Source: Eledone cirrhosa | Lineage: Eukaryota | DNA length: 64,000 nucleotides | NCBI GenBank assembly: GCA_964016885.1 | Contig: OZ024748.1 | Location: forward strand, 39,866,001 to 39,930,000 | Reading direction: 5' to 3' | The notes under the pieces: model-generated | Told to the model about the DNA's origin: nothing | What the model saw: the letters and a program-made list of their open reading frames with translations, nothing else | Databases searched by the model: none | Position numbers and translations under genes: made by a program | Shown here: piece by piece, positions 11,700-63,286 of the stretch | Layout of the letters: every line of letters starts with the position of its first letter | Position numbering within the stretch: the first letter of the stretch is position 1

Positions 11700-14600
11700 C
11701 CCAATAGGGGGGAGGCGCCACAAATGGGTTGTTTAATACCCCGTCGATCGAACAACCCTCAACTCCAGGAGCGTGTTGTGCAAGTGCTCCTTTCTTCATT
11801 TTGCTCTCTTCCTCAACCTACAGGCTTATAAACAGAGAAGGCCCAATCACTCGGGCCATTTTCGCTTCATTCACCCACCTTTCAGTAAATTTACTGGGGT
11901 GCAGTGCCTCTCTTTCCACCCTGATTCTCCTTCTAAAGTGATACTTAAAGAAGGGAATCAATTGTTGTCCGGAGAGAAAGGCATCTGTCCTCAGTCCTCT
12001 CAACCTCGTCCACCATATAACTTCTTTCACAATAGCCACCGTACAGAGGAAAACCGCCTCTCTTTCGTTTTTGAAAGAGGCTGGCGGTTTGATCCTTACT
12101 ATGGACTCGGCAGTCAACTGGATTTGTCCCATACGCGACAGCGGTTGTTCTGCATAGTTCCACAGGTCGGTTACGCCCGGGCAGTGTACAATTGCGTGCA
12201 GAACTGTTTCAATGTCCTGCGCACATCTTGGACACGTCCTCTTGGAAGGATCCTTGCCGGGGCGTCCGTGCCTGTAGATCTTGTCACGAACCGGTAGAGC
12301 TCCTCGGTAGCACTGCCAGGCCAGGGATCTCTGGAAGTTGTCCATAGGTCCCGGGCGGAAAGTCCTACCAAACAGACTAGTTAGCTCATCGTATTCGACG
12401 CCCAGAGTCTCTCCGAGCACGTCGTCGCCCTTGTAACGTACAATCCCTCTATAGAATGTCGAAGTGGAGTCTCCACTGATTGCTGCGCCCGCTTGCCAGA
12501 GGACTGTGAGCGCCTGAGCGCATTCAATGTGCCAGGCGCCCATCGTTTTCGGTCTTTTCTTCACCCAGGACTGCAGCTCCGTTAGCGAGACGAGCTGTGG
12601 GAAAGCCTGACTCACAAACGGTTCCCACACCGGTTGGGGGTCGTTGAGGAATACCTGGAGATGCCGCAGCCTCAGCGCAGGTTTGCGGATCATCAGCCAC
12701 GGCATTTCCAGCCCTCCGTTGGAAGGGTGCTGACAGCAGACGGATCTCCTCACCAGCGGAGCCTGCTTCTTCCACAGAAACTGGAAGAGCATGCGTTCCA
12801 TCTTGGCGAGGTGTTCACGGGGACAAGGCACGACAGTCAAGCGGTAGTAGATGACGGACGCTATGAAAGTGTTCGCCACCTCCGCTCGACCTTTCAAGGA
12901 CAGTTTGCACTCTGCCCACTACTGAGTGAGTGCAAACAGCTTGGCCGTGACCTCGTTCCAGTTTTTCTACACCTGGAGGTCTGGACCGAACCAGACCCCG
13001 AGCAATTTCACCGGTCCGTCCAGCGTCCAACGACGCTGTCGGATGTCATCGGTTTGCCTCTCCACGTACCGAGTTGCAAACCGACAGACTTGTCTGGGTT
13101 TAGTTTTGCTCCCGTCAGCGTTACGTATTCTTTCAGTAAGTTGCCGATCACCCCGATTTCCGATGTGCTCGACACCATTACCGTTACGTCGTCGGCATAA
13201 GCCGACGCCGCTTTGCGCAGTCCCGGTTCTAGGGGATGCCCTGCAACAGCTCCAATTTCCGCAGTAGTGGCTTTAGAGTCAATACATACAGAATGGAGGA
13301 GAGAGGGCATCCCTGTCGAATGGAACGCGTGATTGCGAACGGCTCCGATAAGTAGCCGTTCACCTTGACCCTCGAGCAGATGCTGGTGTGCATCGCCTCG
13401 ATCCATCCTCTGAACACGGGACCGAAACCGGCCGCCTTGAGAACCGCTGGTCGACCCTATCGAATGCCTTAGACTGATCCAAGTTGATCAGGGCCCCACC
13501 GAAGCCGGGTTTACACCCTACCCTCTCTATGATGTATCGCATGAGGTGGAGGTTGTCGTGTATGGACCTGGTCGGGATTGCGCATGTCTGCACTTCTGCC
13601 ACCAGGTTCTCGACGACAAGCGCCAGCCTCTTTGCCAACACCTTGGCCAAAATCTGTAACTCTGTGTTTAGCAGAATTATGGGCCGGAAGTTGCCTATGT
13701 CATCCCCCTTATTCTCGTCCTTCCTGATTAGTGTGACCACACCCCCGGTTACAGAACTGGGAAATCTCCCATTCTGTTGCCAGTTGCAGTAGACCGCTTC
13801 CAGGAGACCGGAGAATAAGTCCGGCATTGCTACGTAAAATTCGTAGGGTAGACCGTCGAGACCTGGAGATTTGCGTTTGCTGCATTGGCTCAGCGCGTCC
13901 CCTATCTCAGCGGCTGAAATCGGCTTTTCGCAGAACTTTGCCTCGCTGTCCGAGAGTCGCGGTAGGCCGTCGAGGTATGGACCGAAATCCATAGCCCCTC
14001 CCGGCGCGCCGCCCCTCCCGAACAGTTGAGCAAAATGCTGCTGAAAGGCCGCACACATCTGCTTCGGCTCACGTATCACGCGACCCTTTTGGTCCTTCAA
14101 AGACCGAATCGTGGACTTGTTGCCACTTTTTGCCTCCGTCACTCGGGCCCAGCTAACAGCTTTGGCTCACTCATTTCCCAGAGCACGTATTTTGCTTCTG
14201 ACAACGCAGCCCTCGTGCTTTGCGTCGAAGAACTGGTCCAAGGCCGTTATCGTTGCTAGCACGCTGGCTACGTTGCCACTTCTAATTGCCTCTTCTACTT
14301 TATCTACCAGTTCCTTCTCGGTTCTATTTCTATCTAACGCTAATTCTTTACTAAAAATTAACGAGTCTAATCTAACTGCCCTCTTGAGAGAGTACCACCA
14401 TCTGTTGTTGACAATGGCCCCTGTCAAGTGCTGTTTAACTAAAGTGCTAATCCGCCTACTGTAAGTGTAAGTGTAAATTTCTTGTGTTGTGTTTGTTTTT
14501 GTCTGTAGTTCTTGTGTGTGCTTTCGTTTTGTTGTAGGTATTTTGTTTTCAGGAGGTGGGCGTTTTGTTTGTGATGTTTTTTGTTGTTTGTGTTGGTGGT

Positions 14601-15235
14601 TGTATGTTTGTGGTAGTGTTTGCTGGTTTTTTGCTTTTGTGATGTCTTTTCTTTCTTTTCGAGCGATGGGGTTCTCCCTCGTCTTCACTGGGTGATGGCG
14701 AGATAGCCTCATCTGTTGTATCGTCTGTGTGATTGGAGAGGGGTATGTCTTGGGGAGCTGTTGTGTCTGTATGTGATTTTGCAGTGGTTTTAGGTGGAGT
14801 GGGGTTGGGTGGGACTGTGTTTGTTGTGGTTATTTTTGTGTTTTGGCGTTGTTGTTGTTGTGGTGGTGTTGGTGGTTGTGTTGTTTTGATGGGTGTCGGC
14901 AGAAGAGCCTTTTTTTTATTCATTAATTTAGGACAGGAAGCCCTCAGGTGACCCCTGCTAAAGCAATGGTAACATGAAGGCCACCTACCCTCAACCGAAA
15001 AGTTTATGTAAGTGAGTCCGTCCAGGAGTACACGTTGTGGGATCATAGCTATTCGCTCTGGGCTCATTTGCACCAGAACTTCAATGCTAGTCCCATTGAA
15101 TACATCTCTGGGGGACTTGCCTACTGACAGTATTCTGTCTTCATCAAAATTGATGAAGCCGCACAGTATCCACCATATGTTCACCTTAGGTGTGACACTC
15201 GTGATTTTGATCTTTTGTGTTATTTTTCCCAGCCA
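11700..15235 (-). mobile_element. L1/Tx1-clade non-LTR retrotransposon, decayed (ORF1 fragment, ORF2 RT and C-terminal zinc motif; endonuclease apparently deleted)
   Basis: KSPGLDGLPYEFY, NFRPIILLN, LDQSKAFDRVD, QGCPLS, AYADDV, CPRC..ETVLHAIVHC; ORF1 knuckle CYHCFSRGHLRASC at ~14935-14975; frameshifted. Confidence 0.9.
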
Positions 15236-15264
15236 TGTACTTATACCTATATACATACATATAT

Positions 15265-15333
<69 letters not shown>

Positions 15334-15435
15334 AAAAATGGAGTGGTTCGTTGTGGCACATGAGTTACATATGAATAAAATTCGTCCTTCATCAATGATC
15401 TTCCATTCATTGGTATTTCAGCGATTATATATATA

Positions 15436-20401: not shown

Positions 20402-20523
<122 letters not shown>

Positions 20524-21041
20524 ATATTTGGAGAGGGTCATATTTGCGTAATATTGCCAGAATTAATAACAGAACACACTCACTGTTTGGTTGGTTTTCG
20601 CTTCTCGCTGTCTTTTATATATATATATCTGCGATCTAACTTACTCGGTCCTCAATGTTGCCATTGACTGACCGGCGGTCAAAAATAATACAGATACAAT
20701 ATAGACACAAACACATATATATAGTTTACATAATTTACATAAATCTTTCGTTGCACATCTGCAACATCGTCAGTGGTGTTATATTCATTGTTCCTCCTGT
20801 TGTGTTGTATGTCTACGCCATTTTTTTTGTTCAGTCTGTCGATATATTTATTTATTTATTTGCTTGTTTGTTTATCTTATTTTATTTTGTCTTCTTTGCG
20901 CATGCGTTTGCGTGTGTGTATAGTGTTATGTGTGATGTGTGACTAGTGTGTATAGTGTTGTGTCTGCTGGGTGACTAGTGTGTGTTTATGTGCTTGTGTA
21001 TGTATTTGTTTATCTTATTTTATTTAATTTTATTTACTTAT

Positions 21042-23243
21042 TTATACTTCTCTTAGGTCAGTGTTGTTTGTTTGGATGTTGTTGTTGTTCCACTCATTCT
21101 TTCTGTTTAGCTTTGGTCTTCTAATTTCTATTTCACTGGCCTCTATGATTTGCCTATCTGCTGGGTCATTCCTATGTTTAGATATTATTCTAATTTCTAT
21201 GTTGTCTATGTTACCGTCATGTTGTTGTCTAGCATGTTCGTATAGTACTGACCCGTTTTTTCGTCCTTTTAGTTCCCCCCAGTGTTGGTCTATCCTTTCA
21301 CCTATGCTACGAGCTGTCTCACCTATGTATGTTGTTGTCATGTTTCTGCAAGTACCCTCTGTACATCTTATGCTATAGACTACGTTTCTAGTTTTACAGT
21401 TTATCCGGGGGTTCACCTTACATATGATACATTTCCTATTGGTACAGTGGGTTTTCTTAAAAGGGTAGGTTTTGCTGATCAGGGATTTTATGGTGGTTCC
21501 TGGCTTTTCTACCACCTTTATTTTTAAGTGGGTCTTTCTCAGGGCCTTTCTACACTGGTTAGCTAATTTCCCTCCAGGGGTGGCGTCCACAAATATGACA
21601 CTCTGATATCTCTGGTTGTCGTACCATGATGTGGCCTTCCCTATCTTATGTCTAGCCCTATCTAAGCTATTCCATGATTTGCTCCTGTATAGTGGGCAAA
21701 TTCCTTTCATGTCCAGTTCTATGAGGGTCTTATACTTTTCCATGGCTCCTTCGTATACTCTGACTCTGTCTCTTTGGTTGTAGCCAGAGAACTGCATGCG
21801 GTTGATGAAGTGTTGGATGTGTCCTTCCATTTCTGTTGGGTCGCACATTCTGGACACATTCTTCATCACTCGTACCAAATCTGCGATCAGAATATTAAAC
21901 TTAGCACTACTGGACATCGCTGAGTTTTTGAGTATCAGGTATTTGGAGGCCATGGGTTTAGCATAGTGTGAGTGGAGAATTTGGGCTCTCTCGTCTATAG
22001 TGTTAATCCAGAGTTCTGTGTCTAATACAGGTAGTCTATTGTTAGGGTGTTTGGAAGGGAAGTCTATAGTTACAGTTATACTCTGGTGTATGGAATTAGC
22101 TATCTGCTGGATGCTTTCCATCGTGCTACGTTCTAAATCAAACTTGTTAGTGCTCTCTAGTGGGGGTGTTCTTATAACTATATTGATATCGTCTACATAA
22201 CGAGAGTACATGATGAGGTCTATGGAGCTTTCATTAAGGAGATCTTTAAGTCTCCTTTCCCACCATACCATGAAAAGGTTGGCAACATCACCAGCTATGC
22301 TGACGCCGATGGCTGCTCCCTCATTTTGGGTGTAGATTTTCTCATTGAACTTAAATATGTGGCCCTTTAGGGTAGTTTTGATACTAGCCCCTATTGCATG
22401 TGCGACCATTTTTCTTACCTGATCAGTGTTTTGGGGGGTCTGTATAGCTTTGGTCCACCCAATCCACCTTCCTATGGGAGTCTTTTTAGCCATTGAGGTT
22501 ATGGTGGGGGGTCTACCTCTTATAGGTCTACTAGGGCAGAAACATCTAAGGTCATGGCTGTCTAGGTAGTCAGTGTCGTAGGTAAGTCTAAGTAGGAGGC
22601 CCAGTTCGTCTGTGTCGACGTCGCAGAACTCCACCTCACTCTCAATGATCATCTCCACACATCTTTTCACAGCAAAATCAATGTTAATGGATGGGTACAG
22701 TGACACCACATCCATGCTGCCTATTATGCAGTTGGATAGGCTCCTGTTTTTGTTGCACTCACTGATTCTGCTGAGGAGGTCCTCTGTACTTTCACATACA
22801 TCTGGGGACATCTTGATTATGGGGCGTATAACCATTGAGAGGAAGTAGGAGATCCTGTAGTTGCTAGCTATATTAGCTCCGCATACGGGTCTTGTTGGTG
22901 GTCCTGTTGTCGGGTCGTCGACTGTCTTGTGGTCTTTGCGGAGCCCATACAAGGGTGGTATGCCATTGTTAGACGCCTGGAAGTTGTTGGCAGTGCGTCT
23001 GCCTCGCTTTAGGATGTCAGTCGACATCATCATGTGAGCGTTGAGGATTTTTTCTCTCCCATCGTGTCTTAGTTGTGCAACTTCGCTCGTGTTGGTGATG
23101 TGGGGTTGCATTGCCTCGATGTAGTTCGGCATGCTATCTATTGACATCCTACCAGACTTATCTGTGGGTAGACACACTACCTCACCATCCCTTGTGCGCT
23201 GCTTGAGGCTAACCAAGCCTTCTACAGGTTTTATCCCAAGTTG
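21042..23243 (-). mobile_element. Penelope-like element, 5'-truncated, open RT + GIY-YIG frame; pLTR at ~20515-21040
   Basis: PTDKSG, PPLYGLRKDHK, SMDVVSLYPSI, GAAIG, RYVDD, NVVYSIRC..YIGETAR; uninterrupted ORF. Confidence 0.95.
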
Positions 23244-23278
23244 TGTTCTGTTATTAATTCTGGCAATATTACGCAAAT

Positions 23279-26200
23279 ATGACCCTCCCTAAATATAACA
23301 ATATCTGTTTCGACACACGATTTCATATAAAAAACCTCGCAAAACTAATTCATCGCCGCTATGGCATTAGCTTGTGCCAAGCTGAAAGGTTATTGAAAGA
23401 CACTGTTTTCTGTTATATAAAAACTACAATAACAACAGAACAAATCCGCTTCTTAAAACACTGTGTTTCCTCCAAAACATACACAACAAACATATCAAAA
23501 CAAGTAAATAATTTATTATTGAACAAAACACAAGCTGAACGGCTAAAACACACAATAACAGTTAATATGAAAAGAACAACATACACAAAAGTCAACGCAC
23601 TCTACAGACAAAAACGCATCAACGGTAAGGAAATCCGAAATCTCATCACAGCAAACGAGAGAGATGACTTCATGAGCGTCATCCGACGCGAAACGAAATA
23701 TGCTCAAAACGAATGCTGTAGGCATTTCAAGAAGAAATTAGAATGGATGAATAAGAAAAAACTACAAGAAAGGAAAATCGAATATTCTCAAAAATACCCA
23801 GATAACATCGACAACATCCGTATGAGTGATGTAAAACTACCGGAAGAATTTACCAATGACCACACAGTAAATATCTATGGGAACACTTTAATCAGTGAAC
23901 AAGAACAACAAATCCTAAAGTTACCACCAAAATTTGCCATCTACAAAAAGATTAACCCTATGGAATGCAAAACGGAGCTGGAAAAGTGTTTCACAAAAAT
24001 ACGTTGGAATGCAAAGGTAAACAACAACAACAATAATAACGGTAGTAGTAATATAAACAATAACTCTGGGTATAGAAATAACAGCCATAACAATGGCAGG
24101 AAAGTGAGAAATAGTGATAATGGCAATAATACTAGCGATAGACAGAACAACAACAACCACAATAATAATAATAATAGAAACGTTAACCACAGACACAGCA
24201 ACAGTGACCACAGTAGTAATAACGGTAACAATACGAACAACAACAACAACAATAACCACAGTGGTAATAATGGAAATAGTACATGTAGCAACATCAACAA
24301 AAGCAAGAAACATAATAATAGTAACAACCACAATGGTAGAAATAGCAGTAACAACAACAACAATAACGGTGAAGTAAACAACAATACATCTAGCAATCAT
24401 AACAATAATAATATTAATGCTAATGATAGAAACAACAACAACCACCATGATAACAATAATAGCAACACACACAACTATGACGATAGAAATAACGACAACC
24501 CCTTAGAGAAACTATTTTTCAACCCAGCTGACAAAACATATAAGATGGGTAATATCTATCCTACGAGGTTACCCTTTAATAAAAGAGTTTGCATACCACA
24601 GCAAATAGATGACGAGACGGAGGCACAGTTCACCATAGCTAGAAATAAGATTAGACAAGTAGTAGACAGGTACACTATGAGACAGAGCAGACCAGAGGCC
24701 CAACAACTTGGGATAAAAGTATGCGGAGCTAATATAGCTAGCAACTACAGGATCTCCTACTTCCTCTCAATGGTTATACGCCCCATAATCAAGATGTCCC
24801 CAGATGTATGTGAAAGTACAGAGGACCTCCTCAGCAGAATCAGTGAGTGCAACAAAAACAGGAGCCTATCCAACTGCATAATAGGCAGCATGGATGTGGT
24901 GTCACTGTACCCATCCATTAACATTGATTTTGCTGTGAAAAGATGTGTGGAGATGATCATTGAGAGTGAGGTGGAGTTCTGCGACGTCGACACAGACGAA
25001 CTGGGCCTCCTACTTAGACTTACCTACGACACTGACTACCTAGACAGCCATGACCTTAGATGTTTCTGCCCTAGTAGACCTATAAGAGGTAGACCCCCCA
25101 CCATAACCTCAATGGCTAAAAAGACTCCCATAGGAAGGTGGATTGGGTGGACCAAAGCTATACGGACCCCCCAAAACACTGATCAGGTAAGAAAAATGGT
25201 CGCACATGCAATAGGGGCTAGTATCAAAACTACCCTAAAGGGCCACATATTTAAGTTCAATGAGAAAATCTACACCCAAAATGAGGGAGCAGCCATCGGC
25301 GTCAGCATAGCTGGTGATGTTGCCAACCTTTTCATGGTATGGTGGGAAAGGAGACTTAAAGATCTCCTTAATGAAAGCTCCATAGACCTCATCATGTACT
25401 CTCGTTATGTAGACGATATCAATATAGTTATAAGAACACCCCCACTAGAGAGCACTAACAAGTTTGATTTAGAACGTAGCACGATGGAAAGCATCCAGCA
25501 GATAGCTAATTCCATACACCAGAGTATAACTGTAACTATAGACTTCCCTTCCAAACACCCTAACAATAGACTACCTGTATTAGACACAGAACTCTGGATT
25601 AACACTATAGACGAGAGAGCCCAAATTCTCCACTCACACTATGCTAAACCCATGGCCTCCAAATACCTGATACTCAAAAACTCAGCGATGTCCAGTAGTG
25701 CTAAGTTTAATATTCTGATCGCAGATTTGGTACGAGTGATGAAGAATGTGTCCAGAATGTGCGACCCAACAGAAATGGAAGGACACATCCAACACTTCAT
25801 CAACCGCATGCAGTTCTCTGGCTACAACCAAAGAGACAGAGTCAGAGTATACGAAGGAGCCATGGAAAAGTATAAGACCCTCATAGAACTGGACATGAAA
25901 GGAATTTGCCCACTATACAGGAGCAAATCATGGAATAGCTTAGATAGGGCTAGACATAAGATAGGGAAGGCCACATCATGGTACGACAACCAGAGATATC
26001 AGAGTGTCATATTTGTGGACGCCACCCCTGGAGGGAAATTAGCTAACCAGTGTAGAAAGGCCCTGAGAAAGACCCACTTAAAAATAAAGGTGGTAGAAAA
26101 GCCAGGAACCACCATAAAATCCCTGATCAGCAAAACCTACCCTTTTAAGAAAACCCACTGTACCAATAGGAAATGTATCATATGTAAGGTGAACCCCCGG

Positions 26201-27130
26201 ATAAACTGTAAAACTAGAAACGTAGTCTATAGCATAAGATGTACAGAGGGTACTTGCAGAAACATGACAACAACATACATAGGTGAGACAGCTCGTAGCA
26301 TAGGTGAAAGGATAGACCAACACTGGGGGGAACTAAAAGGACGAAAAAACGGGTCAGTACTATACGAACATGCTAGACAACAACATGACGGTAACATAGA
26401 CAACATAGAAATTAGAATAATATCTAAACATAGGAATGACCCAGCAGATAGGCAAATCATAGAGGCCAGTGAAATAGAAATTAGAAGACCAAAGCTAAAC
26501 AGAAAGAATGAGTGGAACAACAACAACACCCAAACAAACAACACTGACCTAAGAGAAGTATAAATAAGTAAATAAAATTAAATAAAATAAGATAAACAAA
26601 TACATACACAAGCACATAAACACACACTAGTCACCCAGCAGACACAACACTATACACACTAGTCACACATCACACATAACACTATACACACACGCAAACG
26701 CATGCGCAAAGAAGACAAAATAAAATAAGATAAACAAACAAGCAAATAAATAAATAAATATATAGACAGACTGAACAAAAAAAATGGCGTAGACATACAA
26801 CACAACAGGAGGAACAATGAATATAACACCACTGACGATGTTGCAGATGTGCAACGAAAGATTTATGTAAATTATGTAAACTAGATATATGTGTTTGTGT
26901 CTATATTGTATCTGTATTATTTTTGACCGCCGGTCAGTCAATGGCAACATTGAGGACCGAGTAAGTTAGATCGCAGATATATATATATAAAAGACAGCGA
27001 GAAGCGAAAACCAACCAAACAGTGAGTGTGTTCTGTTATTAATTCTGGCAATATTACGCAAATATGACCCTCCCCAAATATAACAATATCTGTTTCGACA
27101 CACGATTTCATATAAAAAACCTCGCAAAAC
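23279..27130 (+). mobile_element. Penelope-like element, 1094-aa ORF (23279-26563) with Asn-rich insert and internal in-frame deletion, followed by pLTR and tail
   Basis: Same RT and GIY-YIG motifs; 27025-27130 repeats the ORF start region, the typical pLTR arrangement. Confidence 0.95.
26827..26870 (+). ncRNA. Hammerhead core in the Penelope pLTR (copies at ~10751 +, ~20740 -, ~31185 -)
   Basis: CTGACGA-T-GTTGCA-GATG-TGCAAC-GAAA-GATT-TA; stem I is weak. Confidence 0.65.
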
Positions 27131-29411: not shown

Positions 29412-30678
29412 AAAGTTTTATTTAAGATTGTTGGGTTACAACGAGTAAATATTTTATAACTGATATAAAGCACTCAACAAGTTTGGGACTAGATATACGA
29501 TATTAAACAAATGGAAACTATATTTGTAAAACCATATTTATTTCATTATACATATTTCAGGGATACCATATTAAAAATATGTCATGCCTTCTTCAGATAA
29601 AATACAATATATAAGCAGTTTTATAAATAAATTTGACGTACCATAAAATATTGATCAACTTCCATTTAAAAAAGTTGGTTTGGTAGTGAAATGTTTGTAA
29701 ATATTTAGTGTTAAGCACAGTTAGAAAGAAAGACGTAGAGAAGGAATAAATGTATGTAAAGAAAAACAGAGAGAGATAGAGAGAGATATGGGAGAGAGAA
29801 ATAGTGAGGAGGTGAAAAATGAGAGGCAGCTGAGGTAACAGGTGAATAATAATAATCATCATACAAATTGAGAGATTTAGGAGGGAGGGAGTACTGTAAT
29901 TATTTATTTATTTATTTATTTAGTTATAGTGTTAAGGAGACGGAGATAAATAAAAAATAACTAAAGAGAAAACAGCGATACTTAGATTACATCATGTATA
30001 GAGGGAGGAGAAGAAAGCTATATCTAGAGAGAAGGATGACAGATTTACAATTTTACGTTATGTCCCATCATTTTGAATTATCAATTCATATGAATTGGGT
30101 ATTATACTGTAAATATCAATATCCATGAATGAGACATAGATATATAAAAATAATGACCATATGTTTAGTTTAAAAATTCTCAGGTCTATATACCAAAACC
30201 TGAGATAAAACTTCAAAATACATAAGTATATATGTACTTACCGGAAAAAGAAAGAAAGAGAAAAAGAAAAAGAGAAGGTCATCTCAAGTTCTAGTTGACA
30301 CTATAGATATACACGTGAACATACGTGATCAACTCTGTAATTTCTTATTTCACATGAAAAAATGTTTCCCTTGCGTTATAAAAGATTTTACTATATATAT
30401 ATATACATACATACACATACATAAACATATATATTAATATTAATATTCCTGCCCTCACATACATGATTATCGTTCATGTATAGTTCATGTATCGTTCATG
30501 TATCGACAAGTAACAGTACACAATAACGCACTTATGACAGGCCAGAGATTTACGTGGGAGGTGATCTACCATAAATAACATCAATCCTACGAAACATCTG
30601 CCAAACCAACAAGAAACAGCCATGGATTTCTCCGATCTGTAAGAAAATCTTCTTTTCAATATTTTTTTCGAAATTATA

Positions 30679-31887
<1,209 letters not shown>

Positions 31888-31943: not shown

Positions 31944-32555
31944 CAGGGGTTGGACAAAATAATGGAAACACCTAGCATCATAGAATCATAATTTTGAAAT
32001 ATCTATAAAACCGTCAAAAGCTTGTTTATTTTTATTGTTCTCGAGGTGGTCATTAATTTTGGTAGTAATTTTGGTAGTAATTTGGCAGTAATTGTGGTAG
32101 TAATTTGGCAGTAATTTTGGGAGCTGTACTTTTGTGATCCTTTCTAACAATTCGCGTAAGAGTCCGACGGTATCTATCTGAAAGTTTTGGTTTTCTTCCG
32201 GAGTTTTGTTTCGACGAGGAGGTTTTTCCCTCTTTCTCAAAGACTGTCATTACTTTCGAGACAGTACTTCTTGATACACCAAACATTTCGGCTGTTTTCG
32301 TTACGCTAGCGCCTGCCATACGAGCACCAACAATTTGACCTCTTTGAAAGTCCGATAGATCTGTCATTTTAATGAATTTTAATTACCTTTTTCTGATGAT
32401 ATCTGGAGAGAAACAGCAATTTAAACAAATCATATTAAGCAACACTAATAATAAATAAAAAAAAACATAAAAATAAACAATCTTTTGACGGTTTTATAGA
32501 TATTTCAAAATTATGATGCTATGATGCGAGGTGTTTCCATTATTTTGTCCAACCC

Positions 32556-36394: not shown

Positions 36395-36790
36395 TTTCTT
36401 CTTCATCCAGTTATTTCTGAGAGGGTCGTGGGGTCAGAGTCCTCCAACACTCCTTCCAGCAAGTCAGGTCAGAAGCAACCGTTTCCAACTGATCCGGCTG
36501 GATCTCCCAAGCATGACCAGCCAAGCTCATGGATCTTAGCAAACCATCTTACTCAGGGTGGGTCGATCCCTGGGTCTCTTGTCAGTTTGTTTTGCCCGTA
36601 AAATCTGTCCGGTGATTCTTTCCTGAGACATTCTAACCACATGTCCATAGTATCAGAGCTGTGATCTCTCAATTCGGAGAAGTAGCGGCTCTACCTGGAG
36701 TAACTCTCTGATCTCAGAACTACGCACTCTATCGAGTAACATTACTCCAAAGACCCTTCAGAGGAATCCCATTTCGGCCGCTTGTATTGT
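36395..36790 (-). mobile_element. RTE-type LINE 3' fragment
   Basis: Similar to 40075-40870 and 46030-46250; ends in a GAAGAAGA tail. Confidence 0.65.
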
Positions 36791-36852
36791 TTCTATTTAC
36801 GAAATAACACAACTGAGGATTTTAATAGTGTCAAATTTTCGTTTCCTTTCAG

Positions 36853-38328
36853 TTCCGACTTTATCGAACCATTTAAAATACATATTGTAGAGAACATAAA
36901 GATCAATAACCGTAACGACAGATTAATTGCTCTCGAGAAAGCTGACTACAACATCTTTAAATTACAACCTGAAGATGTCATGATCGATTTCCTTACAGAT
37001 GCTGGCACTAATGCTTTCAGTCTTGAACAAAACGCAAGAATATGGATGGGTGATGAAAGTTATGCCGGATCTACTAGTTATGAAACTTTGAAAGACACGG
37101 CAACATATATTTCTGGTTTTGAAAACATTCTGCCAGTTTTTTCTGAATGTATCAGCGAAGAGATTGTCGCTTCTTATTTCACAAAAGCTGGAGATAAGGT
37201 TATTGGGAATACTTTTACTTATTCACTTGAGAAGCATATAAAGGATCTTCATGCTGAAGCGATTTCTTTGTTAGATTGGTCAGATAATAATTTTGCAGGA
37301 AATCTAGATGTTCAAGCACTCAAAAACTTATTGGCAGAAAATGATAAAAAATCAATTTCCTTTCTTATAATGAATGTACCAGCAAAAAGTAGTGGTGGCC
37401 AACCAGTTAGTATGTCAAACATGAAAGCAGTTTCTGATCTCTGTCGCGAACATTCGATTCCGATATACATCGAAAGTAGTATGTATGGTGAGAACTGTTG
37501 GCTCAATAAAATGTACGAAGAGGCTTACTTCAATAAATCGTTAGTTGAGATATCGCAAGAAATGTTTTCTTTTTTCGATGGCTGCATTATTTCTGCTAAA
37601 AGAGATGGTAGAAGTGAGATTGGAAGTGTCATTTGTCTTCAAGACAAAGAAATGACTCGAAAATTGGGCACTGTTATTACTCTTAAAGCAGGTTTCATAA
37701 CTTATGGTGGGATGGCTGGCCGAGATATGGAAATGGTAGCGGTTGGCATGCGAGGTGCTTTGGATGAACAACTGCAAGACTATCGACAAAAACAATTGGC
37801 ATTTTTCAAAAGATCCCTGAAGGAATTTGGTGTTCCGATTGTGGAGCCAGTCGGTTGTAATACCATCTTCATTGATGCCGAAAATGCTTTTCCTAACTGT
37901 AAACACGCGTTTCATCCAGCCTGGTCTTTATCTTGTGCTGTTTATATCGTCGGGGGTATCCGATGCGCAGAGTTTGGTCAAGTTACTCGTCCAACAAGCA
38001 GCTTACCCACTAATCATTTTCTGAAAGACCGAGAATTACTAAAGCTTGAGATACCTCGTTTCATCTATACGACTTGTCACATTTTCTATGTTGCCTATGT
38101 TTTCGCTCAGCTTATTTCACATGAAATGCTTTCTGGAATGAAACTTATTGCCTGCTCCGAAGACCAAATAAAACTCGTGAAAATAAAAATGAAACCAAAT
38201 CATTCTCTGGAATATGACGATATCCAACTCCTTCCGGTACAAGACTGTGAACACATTCACTTCTTTAAAAACATATCTAATCAAAGAGTTATGAAAAGAA
38301 ATTCAATCGCCGAGGCATCTTCTATATG
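36853..38328 (+). CDS. Tryptophanase/tyrosine phenol-lyase-like domain 1 exon (catalytic Lys replaced by Arg) plus linker
   Basis: EPFKI, IDFLTDAGT, GDESYAGS, GGQPVSM, TYGGMAGRDME motifs; acceptor tttcctttcAG|36853; donor TG|GTCAGT at 38329. The open frame continues to a stop at 38407. Confidence 0.9.
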
Positions 38329-38887
38329 GTCAGTCGACATTCCTTCTTTTAAAAAGGGGACAAACACGTTAGATAATGTAATCGTAGACACAAAAAAGAC
38401 GTGGTAGTCATGATTGGAACGTCCCTGATCATAGAATTGCTCTGTCAATGTTCACCTGAACTTAAACAACAGCAACAACAACACAGAGATTTTTTTTGTT
38501 GCACCCAAACAGGATTCTGTAAATTCTAGATTGTACATTCTTTTATTCTTTTACTGGTTTCAGTCATTAGACTGTGGCCATGCTGGGGCACTGTTCTTTT
38601 ACTGGTTTCAGTCATTAGACTGTGGCCATGCTGGGACAGTGGTCTTTTACTGGATTCAGTGATTCTACTGTGGCCATGCTAGGGCACCAATTGATTGTTA
38701 GTTTGTTTTTTTTAATTGGTTTTATTCCCAACAATTAAACTATTGAACATGATTTTGAATAGAAAGTAGGGGAAAACATTGACAGTCTTGTCAAATATAG
38801 TTTTAATATTATGTTAACAAAAAAAGGAAATAAAATATCTTTGGAAACTTAAATATATTTCTTGTGATGTTCTTTTTACAATTATTT

Positions 38888-39170
38888 CACCAATATATAA
38901 TTAATATCAAACATTGTGATGTATGTTTCACCAATATATAATTAATAACAAACATTGTGATGTATGTTACACCAATATATAATTAATATCAAACATTGTG
39001 ATGTATGTTACACCAATATATAATTAATATCAAACATTGTGATGTATGTTACACCAATATATAATTAATATCAAACATTGTGATGTATGTTTCACCAATA
39101 TATAATTAATATCAAACATTGTGATGTATGTTTCACCAATATATAATTAATATGAAACATTGTGATGTGG
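38888..39170. repeat. 41-42-bp minisatellite, ~7 units
   Basis: caccaatatataattaatatcaaacattgtgatgtatgtt repeated. Confidence 0.9.
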
Positions 39171-40074
39171 TTGTGATAATTCGGGGAAAGATGGTACAAC
39201 GAATATTAGATAAACTAAGGTGAAAAGATACGACAAATCAGCATTTTAAACTTTTGTCTTATATTTCTTGATATTTTGAGGTGAAAAACTTTTTTCAAAA
39301 GAAAGAAATGGAGTCTGGTGTTGTCAACGCCCAAAGAATTGTTGATAAACGATTTATTTACATCAACTTATTATTGATGGTGAGATGCTTTTGTTTCACT
39401 TTAAAAAAATATTATAATAAGGTGACATACTAATATAAATATTATTTTAAAAATAAAAAACAAATCTTGAAACATCTTATGACTGTGGCAGTGGCAAGGT
39501 TTATAGAGTTAAGAAGCCTCACAACCATCTGATTTCCGGTTCCTTTAGACTACATGGCATCTTAAAGAAGTGTCTTTCTGCCATAGGTTCGAGTCAACAA
39601 AACGGACAGTTTGCCCTTTTCGGCTTGGCGGGCAGCAGGGCCTGGACTGGTGGTGGAATGCACCAGGTTGGTACTTGCAATTAATTGTAATATAACTGAT
39701 AGATGTTGTTTCAATTCTGTGCCATTAATTGTAGATCAACGACAACATTGTTGCAGTAGTTATTTCAATTCTGTGCCATTAATAATCTGTGTTACGAACA
39801 CTACATAAATAGTCTACAGGTGTTACCTTGATTTCACCAGATGGAAATATCAAAATCAAAATTGATTATGTAATTGTTCCAAACAATATTCTCGAAATGG
39901 TGAAAAACTGCCATGTGTATATTTCTACAGATATTGGTCTAGAATATTTCAACTTAGAGACTGGAAAACACAAACGTTATTATCATAAATGTACTGTGAT
40001 TGTGTGAGGCTTAATTATTAAAGATTGTAAAATCCATTCCCAGTGAATTGGTCAAACTATATCCAAGAATTTTC

Positions 40075-40875
40075 TTTTTCTTCCTTCACTTATTCCTGGG
40101 AAGGTCGTGGGGGAAGAGTCTTGAAACACTCCTTCTAGCAGGTCCTGTCAGAAGCAACCATCTCCAACTGATTTGGCTGGATCCCCAAGCGATACCTGCC
40201 AAGCTTATGGATGTTATCCAACTATCTTGCTCAGGGTCTACTCCTGGGTCTCCTGCTGGTTGGTTTTGCCAATAAAATCTGTCCAGTATTTCCTTGGACA
40301 TTCTAGCCATATAATATGTAATATCAGAGCTATGATTTCTCAATTCGGAAAAGTATCAGTTCTACCAGGTGTGATTCACAAGTCTCCAAGCTACACACAC
40401 TATCGAGTAATGATACTCCAAATACCCTTTTGGAGGAACCCCATTTTGGCCACTTGTTTTTGTGATTGTATTCTTTCAGTCATTACACAAGATTCATGAC
40501 CATAGGTAAGGGTTGGCACGAAAACCGAATTGAAGATAGTGAGTTTGGTGTTTACACCTACCTCCCTTCTTCTGATTACCAAATACCAAAGCTGTCACAT
40601 TACTGCGGCAGCTCCTGCAATTATTGCACTTAATTCGGCCTCCTGCCTTCCATCACTCGTGACCATGGCCCTGAGATACTTGAACTTCTCTACCAACTTC
40701 AGTAGAACTCCCTTCGCATGTAGAATGCACTGCGCAGGCTTCCTTTAGAAGACGAGTGTCTCAGTTTTCACAGCACTGAATTTCATTCCAGCCATGCATC
40801 ACTCTGCATCAAACCTATCAAGTGCAAGTCAGAGATCACCTTTTGTTGAGTTTGTAACACCATGTTGTCTGCAAA
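40075..40875 (-). mobile_element. RTE-type LINE fragment (RT C-terminus)
   Basis: KFKYLR and TKLTIFNSVFVPTLTYGHES motifs. Confidence 0.8.
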
Positions 40876-40966
40876 TTCCAGCCACAAATTGCTGGCCATG
40901 TGCCTAAATTAGAAAACCTTATTCCTGCAAAAGGTCCTGTTAATCCTTAATTATTATTAAATATAA

Positions 40967-41222
40967 CATATATACAAACTGGAGCTGTGTCAGGGACCAG
41001 TCCGCAAACATATATACAAACTGGAGCTGTGTCAGGGACCAGCCTGCAAACATATATACAAACTGGAGCTGTGTCAGGGACCAGTCCGCAAACATATATA
41101 CAAACTGGAGCTGTGTAAGGGACCAGTCCACAAACATATATATAAACTGGAGCTGTGTCAGGGTCCAGTCCGCAAAAATATATACAAACTGGAGCTGTGT
41201 CAGTGACAATGTCTGCAAACAA
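40967..41222. repeat. 42-bp minisatellite, ~6 units
   Basis: catatatacaaactggagctgtgtcagggaccagtccgcaaa repeated. Confidence 0.9.
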
Positions 41223-41546
41223 TGAGTTGAAAATTTTAACACCAAGAAATATATGATAAATAAAAACTACAGTTAACAGATTTTTGTGTTTTGAATTACT
41301 AAAGTGACACGTGTACAATGTAATTGGTATATATATATATACTCTCTCTATATGTATGTGTTTTTATATAAATATGTAAATATTTGTGTGTATATATATA
41401 TATATTGTTGTTATATAGTAAGGTGTATTATTGGTTGTGTCATACGGTCCAATAAACTTTTGTTAGCAATATTAAGTTCTCCACGCTTTTGTATATCTCC
41501 AATTCCATTTAAGGGAACAGCTAGATGATGTAAAACGGAGTATTTG

Positions 41547-43129
41547 TATCAAAATAAAGATCCGAAAGCATGGTATAAATTTCCAATCATTTTAATCACA
41601 ACACGTTTCAATAAGGGATAGATCGATCGTGTGGTCATGATCGATTATCACTGATTTCATCATTCTTAACTGAGCGTGTAATACGTCTATTTACTAACTG
41701 AGAGAACTCTATGGTTAGGGTATTCTAAACCTTCCTCAGGATTTTTGGAAAGTAACCTACCACTAACTGCCCCCTTTTTACCTTAGCCATAGAGTTCTCT
41801 CAATTAGCAAAAAATAGACAATCACACACTCAGGTAGTAGACAGCTAAGATCGTTTGCGCACCTACACACTGTACTCGGTGTGTTTCCACAGAGTTCTCA
41901 CAGCTGAGTGCATATTTACCATTACTTTAGAATACCTAGTTAGTAAATAGTTAGAACAATTACACTCGCAGTTAAGACCGATTACGCGCATTCACCATTA
42001 CTTTAGAATACCCTAACCATAGAGTTCTCTCAGTTAGTAAATAGACGTATTACACACTCAGTTAAGAACGTTACGCTCTTTATACATAATTCTACACAGT
42101 ACCCGGTTTCTTTAGACACAGAGTTGCCACAGTTATGACCAGTCATGATCTTGTCGATTGAATACTACACTAGGTTTTGGTCTGTGATCCTCTAACCAAG
42201 GAGTGCTCACAGTTTGCTGAATGGACAATACTACTTACACGCCATCAATGGACTTACACACATCCCCGGGGTTTTGTTATTTTATTTTGTGTTGGGTAAC
42301 ACACCTCCACCACTCAAACACTTATCTTAAAGGCCCGAGGGAAAACGCACACACTGACACCTTAACTCAAATACCCAACCCTACATGGAGCCCCTTGTTG
42401 GCCTACATGGCAGGTGCTTGCACGCACAGACTCGGGGACCCAGATTCTCAACGGGACAACGGCACATATAGAGTTCGATACGAGCTGACTACTTGCTCTA
42501 CACATGGATGTGTATATACCAAAACATACACTATTTAGACGATACAGATGTTACAATTCAATCGATACACGTATAGCAGAACGTTGAAGGGAATTTACTT
42601 GCGTGTGTATAGTGTTGTGGTTGACCCAATTTTTTTCTAATTTACATCGTGAAAATTGAGATTTGACCAATATAACGTTTGTTGTTTTGTAACCTAACTT
42701 TTGGTGCATACTGTGTTGCTGTGTATATTTTTTTTTCTCTGACCTCGCGTCGGTGTGTGTGAGTGTGTGTGCACTCAATAACACTAATTGTGACGGACCA
42801 AAATTCTACAGATCTGGTGCTGAGATTAGACCTGTCCAGCGTCTTTTACAGCTATTGAGAGATAGAGACTTGATAGATTTATGACCCTGACTGAAGACAA
42901 TAGCAGTTGTCGTGTTTTGGCTGCTGATTATTCATATGGGGAACAAAACTCCAGTGAGTGAACATCGTTAGTTTTTCCTCCCTCATATCAAAGATTTCAA
43001 GACATTTCATTATTCACCTGAGATCAGTGATAATCGATCATGACCACACGATCGATCCCTTATTGAAACATGTGTCGTGATTAAAATGATTGGAAATGTA
43101 TACCATGCCTTCGGATCTTTATTTTGATA
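41547..43129. mobile_element. ~1.6-kb intronic element bounded by ~110-bp inverted repeats
   Basis: 41547-41657 is the reverse complement of ~43022-43129; internal repeats of agagttctctcagttagtaaatagac. Confidence 0.7.
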
Positions 43130-43165
43130 TATATATATAAAACTGAATTTACATTTTTTTTCCAG

Positions 43166-44555
43166 TCTCCAAGCAATGGAACCTTACAGGATTAAGGTAT
43201 TTTATCCAGTCAATTTAATCCCCAAGTCTGACCGTATTGCATGTCTAAAAGCTGCCAACTACAACCCCTTTCTACTTAAATCGAAAGACATATTTATAGA
43301 TTTGCTAACAGATTCTGGTACAGGAAGTCAAAGCAGTGCCCAGTGGTCGGCTATGACTAAAGCCGGCTATTCAACTATTAATTCCGAATACGTTAAGGAA
43401 TTTGTACGTACAATTCAACACATTACCAATTTCAAACATGTATTTCCAGTTCATCAAGGTCGAGGAGCCGAAGGTTTGTTGGCAAAACTCCTACTGAATA
43501 AAGAGAGTGTTGTACTGAGTAATTCTCTCTTTGACACAACACGAGCACACGTTGAGTCATCTGGTGCAATTGGAATAGATTTGGCAACAAAGTCTTCAAA
43601 ATTCTTAGGTGATGCCGATGTGGAAAAATTTGAAGAAACACTGGATGAATATGGTTCTAGAGTTCATCTTGTAATAATAACCTGCACCAATAATGTGGTA
43701 GCCGGAGCTCCTGTGAGCATGCAAAATATAGAAATCATAACAAAATTATGTCGAAACAAGAATATCCCAGTTATAATGGACGCATGCCGTTTTGTTGAAA
43801 ATGCTTATTTTATCAAGACCTTAGACGAAAAATATTCTAAACACACAATCTTAGATATTGCCAGCGAAATGTTTTCTTATTTTGATGGTGCAACTATGTC
43901 TTTAAAGAAAGATGGTATGAGCAATGAAGGTGGGTTTATAGCTTTCAACAACGACAAATGGGCCACCAAAATATTTGACATAATCGAATATAAAAGTGGT
44001 TATTCAACTTACGGGGGAATAACTGGATCAAATCTTGTAGCATGTACTGTCGGAATTTCTGAGGCTATGAACGAAAATTACCTCCGATCAAGAATCTATC
44101 AGGCTAAATTACTGGCTGATTTCTTGGAAGATAATAATATTCCCGTATTTAAACCAGTAGGGGCCCATGCCGTCTACGTGAAAGCAAACAAAGTCTTGCC
44201 ACACCTTGATTTCTTGAAGTATCCAGCATGGTCCCTTAATTGTGCCGTATATATCGAAGGTGGTATTCGATGTGCAGAAATTGGCAATATAATGTTTGGT
44301 GAAAATTCAGATGGAACAAAACAAATTCATCCCTTTGAATATGTGCGTTTGGCTTTACCCAGAAGAACCTATACGGTCAACCATCTGCATTTTGTGGCCA
44401 AAACTTTTGGTTTTGTTGCCAAAAAAGCCCATTTAATCCACGGAATGGAAATTGTCAAATCTTCGCATCTCCTAAGACATTTCACAATTTGGATGAGACC
44501 ATTAAATGAATACCACCTTGAAAAGAATAATAATCAGAAAAAAATAAACTGTTGA
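43166..44555 (+). CDS. tnaA: Tryptophanase-like domain 2, terminal exon (PLP lysine intact)
   Basis: EPYRIK, DLLTDSGT, HQGRGAE, FDTTR, DACRFVENAYFIK, MSLKKDG, EIG, VRLALPRRTYT, LRHFT; acceptor ttttttttccAG|43166; an in-frame ATG is also present at 43176. Confidence 0.93.
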
Positions 44556-59459: not shown

Positions 59460-62400
59460 ATCAATTTTCCCCTCGTCCTACTGCATATGAAAGTCTGCTG
59501 TCCAAGTTGGTGGTTTGCGACTTCTTTGCGATCTCCGCAGTGTTGGGGTGGCACTTTGGGTTTCCTCTTCCTCGGAGTCCGTTGACACAGTGATTCTACG
59601 GACATCCAGGACATGACGTGGTACTCCGTCCAAGGACACATTGTTCTGGGAATTTACGGCCGTCACCGTTCCCCTTCCCCATTGAGATGTGCAACGTGCA
59701 TATGGGGGCTTAACCCAGACTTCTTCGCCCACCTGCACGAATGCACTCTCTCTCCCCACTGGCCGTTGTGATGGCGTGCACGGGTGCCGCCACTCGTATC
59801 TGAATACTGCTCTGTGTGGCACCGATTCCTCGACCTGTCTCACCCGAGGGGACATGTTGTACCAGAACACTGCCTCCATTGGTGAGATATGGCCCCGCTC
59901 CGCCATTGCCTTGATCGTCCGGTGGTGTCGCTCTACAATTCCATTCCCGCTCGGCCTGTGCGCTGCTCTGAAGAAACGGTCCACCTTCCATCCATCGAGC
60001 ATCTCCCTCAGCGCCTCCGAGCGCAACGCTGCGCTGTTGTCCATCAGCAGTTCGTCCACAGGGCCCCGCTCCAAGAACACCTCTCTCAACGTCCGCATGA
60101 TTTCCTCGGCCGTTCCAGTCTTCATCTCCCTCCATATCGCCATCCGTCCTGATCCACAGTCGACCATCGAGAGGTACGTTCCCTGTCGGTAGTGCGTTAC
60201 ATCCACCGCCAATCGCTTCCAGTCGCGATCCACCGGGAGGCTTTCCGTTTCATGTACACCCGGGGCGGGATCAATGGACTGACATCGGACGCAGCCTCTA
60301 ACCACCCTTTGAACACTGTGTCTGTTAACGTCCGAGTCGATTCTCCTGGCTAGGAACAGGCTCCTATCCACTCCCATGTGGTGCAAGTCATGCAACCCTT
60401 TCAGATCCGACTCGGTCAGCCGACACACGGCAGCTATCTCATCATCTACCTCCTCCGGTGCTTCCATCCAGGCTTTATTCACCCTAGTTAAGACGTCCGC
60501 CCTATTTTTCTCTGAGAGCACGAAAACTACACTCAGCTTCGGGTCGAACTCGGTGGCCAGCTCTCCTAAAGTTCCCAGGCAGCGCTTTATCAGCATCTCC
60601 GCCGCCCCTCTCGTTCGCACTCTCTTCTCACTGGTGAGCACTGATCTCACCCATCCGAGTAGAGTAGCCGAGTCGGTGCGTATCTCGATGGATGCGCATT
60701 CCCCACCGCAGGGCGAGGTTCACCCCTCTCAACACTGCGTCCAGTTCGGCTACATTGATGTGGTTGCAGTCGTCCTTCTTCATAAGCCAGGCTGCATCCT
60801 CGACCTCAACACCTCCTATCTCCAACGTGACACACAGCGCTATGCTGCTGGCATCGCACCATACGGTCCCGCTCTGTGATTTGGGAACATACCACCCTCC
60901 CCACGATCTCGTGCATCATGGCCATCTCTTGACATAGCTGCATGCCGTCCGGAGCCACCCAGCAATCGGGTAGTCACCCACCAACTTTCCACACACCGAG
61001 AAAAGCTCCCGCCTACTCATACTTGGGCCCAGTTCTGGAACTTCATTTCCCCTCTGGAATACCAAGACGCCCGTCCTGTCTCGCCGTAGCCTAAGTCCCA
61101 GCGCGGCTCCTCCCTCCAACGCTTCTGACGGCTTCGCAGCCAGTCCATACCCCTGTAAATGGCTCGTGACCTCCGCCGCCGACACCACAAACTCGTCCAC
61201 TAGGATGTCGTCAATGTAGGAGTTAGTGGCCCTCTTCATCTTGTCGGCCTTTCCCAGAATAGCCTTGAGGACCACCGCCATGATCTTCGGTGCGGAGCTC
61301 AGCCCGAAACCGAGCCTGGTCAGGCAATGTATCCGGCCCTTATACCTGACCAGCTGATACTGCCAGAGCTTCTCATCTATATGCAATTGCAAGTATGCCG
61401 ACTTTAGATCTACGATTGCTGAACCCCCGTCATGCGTCTCCACTCAAGCAGGGTTTCCCACACAGACATCCGTGACCTCGCCACTCGTGTGGCATGACAC
61501 GTGCTCGTTCAACTCCCGAAGGTCCAGCACCGGCCTCACCTTGTTCTTCATGGGTTGCGCCACCGCCATTAACGGCAATACTCCGCACTTCACCTCCTCT
61601 TTCCGGGGAAGCAGTATGCCCTCCTCAATCCATCACTCTACCTCTCGCTCGAACTCGCCCCTAATGTTTCCCTTCAATGTGTGTTGATAGCAGCCCACTT
61701 TGGTCTTCAGTGTTGGTGGTTCTCCCTTCCAGTACCACTCAACAACCCATCGCTGCCTATCGAACACGGCCTTGAAGTCTTTGTCCTGCACAGTGTAAGC
61801 GGGGTATTTCTCCTCGTGGGCCTTCTGGTTCTCCTGTCGCGTACTCACAGCGCATACCGATGCAGCGGCGCCAAACGACACACCGACGTTGTTCACTGAC
61901 GCCTCCTAGACGGCGAATTGCGTCCATGCCCATAACCACGCCGATCCCATCCACCACGCTGTCTACTACGATGGCAGAAAGCCTTATTTTCCTTCCCCGT
62001 ACCGGCATTTCCATCTCGCTGCGATCTCGGCATTCAATTTTCGTGCCATCGACTGCCCTTACGCTGCTCTTCCCTCTTCACCTCTGCGCCACCCCCGCGA
62101 TCACCAGTGTCGTCGTACAACCCGTGTCCACGAGGGCTCGCTGTGGCATTCCCCTCACGAAGACACCCACCATGGAGAGCGCCTCTACTCGTAACGGGAA
62201 ACTACCGGCGCAGTAGTTCCCCTTGGATCGTTTCCCTGGTCGCAGTTAGTAGCGATGTGGCCTGGTCGCTTACACCGGTAGCATATTATTTCCGGCCTTG
62301 ACTCTCTGCAGTCTCTAGCCATGTGCGGGCCCTGGCACCGAAAACAGCGACCTCTAAACGTTCGTGGGCGACCGCGTGCCGTGGTTGCCTACCTTTCACC

Positions 62401-63286
62401 ATTTCGCTGCCAGCTGTCTTGAGCCTCTGTAGTTGCTATCGCCGCGACACTCTTCTTGGCATCTTCTGCTATGATCCGGGCTATTTCCACCAGTGAACGC
62501 ATTTCCATTTCTTTGTAACCCGAGACTTGCTGCAGTTTCACCGCTATGTCGTCTGGAAATCCATTTATGAACGCCAACCGCACCGTACGTTCGCATTCCA
62601 CCTGATATCCAGCCAACATGGCCAATCGCCGTATTTCCGCTGCGAAAAGGTCAACGCGTTCACCGTTCCATCTAATTCTTGCCAGCTTAGCGAAAGCGGC
62701 TAACGGTCCCTCTGCGAACGCTTCCATCATGCGCCTCTCAATCTTTTGCGCATCTCTTTGGCTGTGTTCGTCCAACTCAAGGAAGAGTACCAACGCGTCC
62801 CACTCGAGGTACAGTGCCATGAGGCCAGCCACATCTTCTATCTTCTGCAAGCTTGCGACCAGCCGGACTTTTCGCAGCCAAGCGACAACATCACTTTCAC
62901 CGGTAAATGCCCTCTTCTAATTAGTCTTGCTGTACGTGATAAACAAAAACAACAGACTCCTCTCAGTTTTTCCAGTTGCATTTTTTTTTTTTTTTTTTTT
63001 CAATCAGATCTCAGTTTCCAGTGCCGAAATAGCTTGTGGTTAGAAAAAGCTATCTCACCGCTTTTCATAGGCGCAGCTAAATCCCACTGCTGGTTTCTCT
63101 TCTTCCACGTGCGTCCAACTCCTTAACACCGGGAGCTGCCAAAACTCGCGTCCACACCGTTGTTGGTCACCACTAGAGAGAGGCCGATCTGCTGGCCCTT
63201 CCGGTCGAGCATCCTTCTGGCCAAGCACTCTTCCGGTCGAGCACTCCCTCGCTTCCGGCCACCGCACGCCACACCATACCCACATC
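59460..63286 (-). mobile_element. Ty3/Gypsy retrotransposon, decayed copy 2 (gag-PR-RT-RNaseH-IN), lacking the 3' LTR
   Basis: YIDD RT motif; integrase HHCC and D-D-E (VDVTH, MDN, GIVERHHRT); polypurine tract AGGACGAGGGGAAAA; near-identical to 1-2432. Confidence 0.93.

Follow-up and report, generated by a model that had tools for sequence, protein, structure and literature searches.

Two tryptophanase-like frames and a candidate shared first exon

The stretch of DNA analyzed here, hereafter the window, comprises 64,000 nucleotides of Eledone cirrhosa (positions 39,866,001 to 39,930,000 of contig OZ024748.1, GenBank assembly GCA_964016885.1) and contains two forward-strand frames related to tryptophanase (TnaA; tryptophan indole-lyase, TIL) and tyrosine phenol-lyase (TPL), termed here D1 (36740-38407, 555 codons from stop to stop) and D2 (43128-44555, 475 codons from stop to stop). 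Both are whole beta-eliminating lyase domains of the tryptophanase/TPL family, with PF01212 and NF009709 scoring above their curated cut-offs for D1 (128 and 395 bits) and for D2 (181 and 495 bits). The equivalog cut-offs were missed, D2 reaching 349 of 826 bits for TIGR02617 and 390 of 750 bits for NF053783 and D1 scoring lower, and both domains fell below the cut-offs of TIGR02617 and TIGR02618. D1 and D2 are 32% identical. D1 was predicted as a complete TPL/tryptophanase domain (predicted template modelling score, pTM, 0.82; residues 461-517, the tail, at low confidence), and its predicted structure superimposes on fold type I TPL with template modelling scores of 0.89-0.92, normalised by target. 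An earlier, sequence-only reading of this DNA had pointed to the two frames as long and stop-free amid decayed sequence; both exist, but they are not the sole long frames, as a retroelement-like frame of 1101 codons occupies 23258-26563. The proposed gene consists of the following parts:

30622..30638, forward strand: shared first coding exon, five codons and two bases (MDFSD-L), with a GTAAGA donor at 30639
36853..38407, forward strand: D1, putative alternative last exon 1, the subunit keeping the trans residues; acceptor AG at 36851-36852, 523 residues with the first exon
43166..44555, forward strand: D2, putative alternative last exon 2, the subunit keeping Lys257, which binds pyridoxal phosphate (PLP); acceptor AG at 43164-43165, 468 residues with the first exon

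The first exon lies outside the interval covered by the sequence-only reading (36853..44555), and its peptide, MDFSD, occurs once in the six frames of the window, at 30622. It can be spliced in frame to either acceptor, and the N-termini of the resulting 523- and 468-residue products match those of the RefSeq isoforms X1 and X2 of Octopus bimaculoides at 13 of 13 residues each, and those of O. sinensis at 13 of 13 (X1) and 12 of 13 (X2). The closest relatives of D1 and D2 are cephalopod: D1 is 75-77% identical to the D1-type isoforms X1 (XP_014791032.1 in O. bimaculoides, XP_036366181.1 in O. sinensis) and D2 is 82-83% identical to the D2-type isoforms X2 (XP_014791033.1 and XP_029647098.2, respectively). 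All four isoforms start with MDFSDL, and X1 and X2 differ in their C-termini. Since a single upstream exon is in phase with both acceptors and RefSeq holds X1 and X2 for the orthologues, D1 and D2 would be mutually exclusive last exons, each encoding a subunit; on this evidence, one gene very probably yields two subunits by alternative last exons, and its normal product is very probably not one fused chain. Two more distant D2-type records, P0053 and P0448, combine a similar leader with a stop on short Logan contigs (1641 and 2180 nt).

The first intron carries a Tc1-like transposase fragment (32053-32382) and, at about 30930-31026, a fragment of the start of an inverted-repeat retroelement. 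Between D1 and D2, inspection by eye revealed two pairs of inverted repeats (41660-41810/41930-42060 and 41590-41670/43010-43110), the second of which ends just 5' of the D2 acceptor. These repeats could influence the choice of last exon.

Reciprocal loss of active-site residues

Residue numbers, except those quoted from papers, follow Citrobacter freundii TPL, to which both domains were aligned; in this numbering, Glu69 acts in trans, at the cation site. According to passages of PMC11301627, Tyr72 of the catalytic dimer is contributed by the other chain and the same-chain site is lined by Thr50, Ser52, Asp133, Asn194, Asp223, Lys266, Arg414 and His458, and passages of PMC2770544 place Tyr74 and Tyr307 on the PLP of the neighbouring subunit. 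Three codons mark the division of these roles between D1 and D2:

37061..37063, forward strand: Tyr71 equivalent of D1, the acid catalyst proposed for the partner's site (codon check)
37601..37603, forward strand: Lys257 to Arg in D1 (AGA; codon check), Arg in seven of seven D1 sequences
43908..43910, forward strand: Lys257 equivalent of D2, PLP-binding (codon check), Lys in nine of nine D2 sequences

The motif changes listed in the sequence-only reading are present in the translations at the coordinates it gave, and align to C. freundii TPL as it stated. D1 retains Glu69, Tyr71 and Tyr291 and is altered at the cis positions, where it has Ala51, Ser98, Glu99, Cys100, Thr123, Lys185, Glu214, Met217, Arg257, Glu262 and Lys404; the changes Ser51 to Ala, Phe123 to Thr and Asn185 to Lys are additions to the earlier list. 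With Lys257 replaced by Arg, no PLP Schiff base would be possible in D1. D2 retains every cis residue tested and has lost the GDExYAG segment including Tyr71; where the trans Tyr would be, at 43374, the codon is one for Thr (codon check). The trans loss ascribed to D2 was borne out for GDExYAG and Tyr71 but not for Tyr291, which is kept in the window D2 (Tyr in four of nine D2 sequences, this one included, and Phe in five). Lys257 and Tyr71, which a canonical TnaA carries on one polypeptide, are thus divided between D1, with the Tyr and without the Lys, and D2, with the Lys and without the Tyr.

Alignment with TnaA, TPL and orthologues recovered the same reciprocal pattern, with Lys257 lost to Arg and Tyr71 retained in 7/7 D1 orthologues, and Lys257 retained and Tyr71 lost in 9/9 D2 orthologues. 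This conservation extends to relatives at 43-44% (P0323) and 51-57% identity. As a reference, 190 intact single-domain enzymes were picked for carrying both the Lys257 and the Tyr71 motifs, and 80 alignment columns were at least 97% conserved among them; 46 of these are kept by both domains, 20 are lost in D1 only, 11 in D2 only and three in both. The reciprocal losses are real, conserved and beyond chance.

At TPL positions 124, 381 and 448, D2 has the tryptophanase-type residues Asp, Ile and His, so that Trp is the likely substrate of the D2-containing enzyme. The Trp-specific Asp133 and His458 (P. vulgaris numbering) correspond to Asp123 and His438 of D2, found in all nine D2 sequences. In the dead pocket of D1, Lys185, Glu214, Arg257 and Lys404 are invariant across the seven D1 sequences, and may either just take up the room left by PLP or bind a ligand. 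D1 was also considered as a pseudogene, and this was ruled out, since identity between O. bimaculoides and O. sinensis is 95% for D1 and 91% for D2.

A proposed hetero-oligomer with one composite site per dimer

The reciprocal cis and trans losses, kept in orthologues, point to an enzyme that is asymmetric by necessity, each dimer having one composite site, and we consider it very probable that the locus is a cephalopod tryptophanase gene encoding such a hetero-oligomer. A single promoter and first exon would serve two last exons that exclude each other and each encode a complete subunit; the two mRNAs would be made in the same cells, and D1/D2 catalytic dimers would assemble, probably two per tetramer. 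PLP would bind to D2 only, through Lys257, the QGR loop, Asn185, Asp214 and Arg404, and D1 would reach into that site with Tyr71 and the Tyr291 loop while supplying Glu69 to the cation site. The one working site per dimer would cleave L-Trp into indole, pyruvate and ammonia, its mirror image would be dead, and homo-oligomers of either D1 or D2 should be inactive on Trp. The origin suggested in the sequence-only reading, duplication followed by reciprocal loss, is supported by the residue table of the orthologues and the count over 80 columns. Its mechanism is, in all likelihood, correct as regards the chemistry and mistaken as regards the architecture, which would comprise two spliced subunits instead of one chain. 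If so, the locus is a natural case in which a homo-oligomeric enzyme became an obligate hetero-oligomer by complementary loss, while both partners stayed under joint regulation by serving as the alternative last exons of a single gene.

Three observations weigh against this interpretation. The window D1 has drifted in its dead pocket and tail relative to other octopods (Arg100 to Cys, His448 to Leu). The splicing proposed here is taken from orthologues, whose gene models are themselves predictions. Finally, variation among the D2 copies of the tandem array described below bears no sign of selection (15 nonsynonymous and four synonymous changes and one stop; ratio of nonsynonymous to synonymous polymorphism, pN/pS, 1.03).

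Could the two domains form a single chain?

The sequence-only reading had predicted a single-chain pseudo-heterodimer, for which D1 would have to be spliced to D2, as the main or a minor product, upstream of the D1 stop. Two features of the D1 tail bear on this design:

38329..38334, forward strand: putative cryptic donor GTCAGT, phase 2, in the D1 tail, matching five of seven consensus positions and the best of 12 GT sites in 38150-38420
38340..38407, forward strand: window-specific D1 tail, in which two extra T bases remove the stop of the sister copies and add 19 residues (517 versus 498 codons)

The donor is in phase and lies 5' of the D1 stop, a D1-D2 join through it would stay open for 960 codons, the D1 tail is longer here than in O. 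bimaculoides, O. sinensis and Argonauta, and exactly this single-chain design, as predicted in the sequence-only reading, exists among the bacterial fused TPL-like proteins treated below. Against these points, D1 and D2 are held as separate isoforms in RefSeq for two Octopus species, the D2 acceptor joins the shared first exon directly, and in O. bimaculoides, O. sinensis and Argonauta the D1 stop precedes the position of the 38329 donor. The two extra T bases are not present in any of nine sister copies (9/9), and could reflect either genuine allelic variation or an error in the assembly. No eukaryotic fusion in the order D1-then-D2 was found among the 50 matches listed for relatives of 810-2310 residues. 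P0003, an Argonauta model and the only named eukaryote among those 50, was rejected as proof of fusion, since it has the order D2-then-D1, its D2 is cut and two further D2 models adjoin it; it is likely a mis-join within a tandem cluster. A 960-residue chain produced through the 38329 donor is accordingly very improbable as an account of the locus. That the lineage makes a fused isoform of this length at all, taken by itself, is only marginally less improbable, and use of the D1 pocket as an effector site, taken alone, is unlikely though the least so of these proposals. Very doubtful, too, is their combination, in which a 960-residue D1-D2 isoform would be made in addition, with the dead D1 pocket serving as an effector site and indole output governed by splice choice together with the tenfold array. 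Were the fused isoform true, the lineage would have been caught shifting from an alternatively spliced heterodimer to a fused design that bacteria reached independently.

A further alternative gives D2 activity alone, as a homo-oligomer acting on easier substrates such as S-alkyl-cysteine, cysteine or serine, with D1 as a regulator or scaffold. All tested cis residues are present in D2, and passages of PMC11301627 report that Trp-dead mutants of P. vulgaris TIL still act on S-ethyl-cysteine, a result shown for Asp133 and His458, not for Tyr72. However, the six conserved GDExYAG columns lost in D2 are exactly those that D1 keeps, which a scaffold would not need, and the Trp-specific Asp and His of D2 would be useless without a trans Tyr. 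This explanation is considered improbable.

Mollusc ancestry and fused counterparts in bacteria

A quick tree of 84 rows places D1 and D2 each on a single branch (Shimodaira-Hasegawa-like approximate likelihood ratio test, SH-aLRT, 100) and unites them with a chiton enzyme that keeps both the cis and the trans sites intact in one branch (SH-aLRT 99) whose internal order is not settled. A mollusc ancestry of D1 and D2 is thereby shown.

Two-domain TPL-like proteins of 820-930 residues made up 81 of 117 long proteins, or 80 without the Argonauta model. The bacterial fused set (P0004-P0051, P0324-P0437), which comes mostly from uncultured bacteria, was drawn from top-match lists and is not a census. 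In 72 of the 80, the N half has Tyr71 without Lys257 and the C half the reverse; the N half keeps the Lys in 8/80, and P0004, P0017, P0019 and P0057, which have Lys in both halves, look like early stages. At 80 genome loci, a single 923-residue frame was found twice, a single-domain gene at 70, two neighbouring genes at seven and a split gene at one. The two fused single-frame genes are:

L024:3953-6724: fused gene in a single frame of 923 residues
L025:3953-6724: fused gene in a single frame of 923 residues

The C half carries TPL-type specificity residues (Thr124/Arg381/Phe448) in 73-75 of 80 proteins. The columns lost overlap between C half and D2 (p = 5e-6) and between N half and D1 (p = 0.013), in both cases computed over columns that are not independent. 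In approximately unbiased (AU) tests on 31 of the 84 tree rows under LG+G4, a simple model more prone to long-branch error, two constrained groupings were rejected, one uniting D1 and the N halves (p = 0.0016), the other D2 and the C halves (p = 7e-89). This rejection of a common origin implies that the half-site split is convergent, and horizontal transfer of a bacterial fused gene to cephalopods was ruled out by the tree and AU tests. As the split was reached separately as a bacterial fusion, the pair of systems tests the repeatability of such degeneration. One bacterial fused protein was predicted at pTM 0.86, a value that, without distances, has no bearing on site geometry.

Other arrangements were met in the bacterial material. 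Tryptophanase-type and TPL-type genes stand side by side in seven loci (L040, L067, L069, L083, L092, L097, L100), P0029-P0047 join an actinobacterial tryptophanase to a prenyltransferase of DMATS type (PF11991), and P0022, P0023 and P0026 are tryptophanase fusions with a PF04820 domain.

Comparison with known systems

Cephalopod tryptophan indole-lyases are the subject of a 2023 paper (Yuasa 2023, J Mol Evol 91:912, PMID 38007709), which the sequence-only reading overlooked. The Octopus X1/X2 enzymes resemble the pair in the window as an orthologous pair with an identical first-exon peptide and matching reciprocal losses, and differ in that E. cirrhosa has about ten tandem copies of the unit and a lengthened D1 tail with a putative donor. 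The 2023 work is said to describe two cephalopod paralogues, TIL alpha and TIL beta, that are inactive alone and active as a co-expressed heterotetramer. The core enzymology thus appears to be already published for cephalopods, and the E. cirrhosa gene appears to be an orthologue of the described system; the points of interest beyond it are the layout of one gene with two alternative exons, the tenfold array and the bacterial convergence. A literature search, with most subscription journals outside its coverage, found no description of the octopus pair, shared exon, array or bacterial fusion in the papers retrieved. The passages of PMC8537960 that list tnaA-bearing eukaryotes include octopus and do not mention the split, and passages of PMC4962025 report no KEGG match in O. 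bimaculoides.

Bacterial TnaA (EC 4.1.99.1) and TPL (EC 4.1.99.2) share fold and family with both domains, and D2 carries the Trp-type residues; they are homotetramers with four sites (passages of PMC10170061), whereas neither D1 nor D2 has a full site. Hybrid dimers of E. coli H463F and Y74F are reported to regain activity (Phillips 2002). The bacterial fused TPL-like proteins (e.g. GBD07018.1) share the reciprocal split of half-sites, but have a true single frame, a TPL-type C half, where D2 has Asp/Ile/His, and a separate origin. In serine palmitoyltransferase, the PLP lysine is on LCB2 only and there is one composite site. LCB1/LCB2 is likewise a heterodimeric PLP enzyme (passages of PMC13669308), and differs in belonging to another family, in its reaction and in being encoded by two genes instead of two last exons.

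A tandem array of the unit

Ten D1 and nine D2 copies, 99.1-100% identical in DNA, lie between 39.13 and 40.13 Mb of contig C8 (the array as a whole, L013-L021, spanning 39.12-40.13 Mb), together with two inverted D1 fragments; of the first exon there are six forward and three reverse copies. In five units, those at L013, L016, L019 and L020 and that of the window, the first exon is present and neither frame is interrupted. A stop breaks D2 at L021, a frameshift breaks D2 at L014 and L015 and D1 at L017; no D2 was seen at L018 within the stretch read, and a stretch of about 9 kb upstream of each of L014, L015, L017 and L018 yielded no first exon. In the inverted partial copies (L022:1794-4586 and L023:1883-4601), the first exon is followed by a shortened intron and by a D1 cut off after 829 bases, and L109 holds another inverted first exon. 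Through recent amplification the complete unit has reached some ten tandem copies, and half of these are broken by now. Three consecutive D2-bearing models are found in Argonauta.

Variation among the D1 copies (19 nonsynonymous and 13 synonymous changes, pN/pS 0.38) bears some sign of selection; for D1 as for D2, the counts are small and include broken copies. With too few variants and broken copies mixed in, selection on dosage cannot be shown. The recent growth of the array to some ten units may be a sign that E. cirrhosa produces indole in large amounts. A repeat in decay or wrongly assembled, with open frames that reflect recent duplication only, is the least probable of the alternatives for this locus: copies are nearly identical, five of ten units are broken or incomplete and the units sit among retroelements and satellites, yet the frames are open at 75-83% identity to other octopods with diagnostic residues retained, and the copies differ in exon-start spacing (5.4-6.5 kb) with private and shared changes.

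Several mobile elements surround the unit in the window. A perfect inverted repeat of 2371 nt (20516-22886 and 24719-27089) is built from a retroelement-like frame present twice (748 and 1101 codons), one copy having a weak reverse-transcriptase match; the element looks Penelope-like. A decayed LINE-like element (long interspersed nuclear element; RVT_1, zf-RVT) lies at 11818-15364. Related decayed stretches resembling long terminal repeat retrotransposons, with integrase and reverse-transcriptase matches, occupy 590-2064 and 59478-62916, about 61 kb apart, and this pair perhaps marks the period of the amplified unit.

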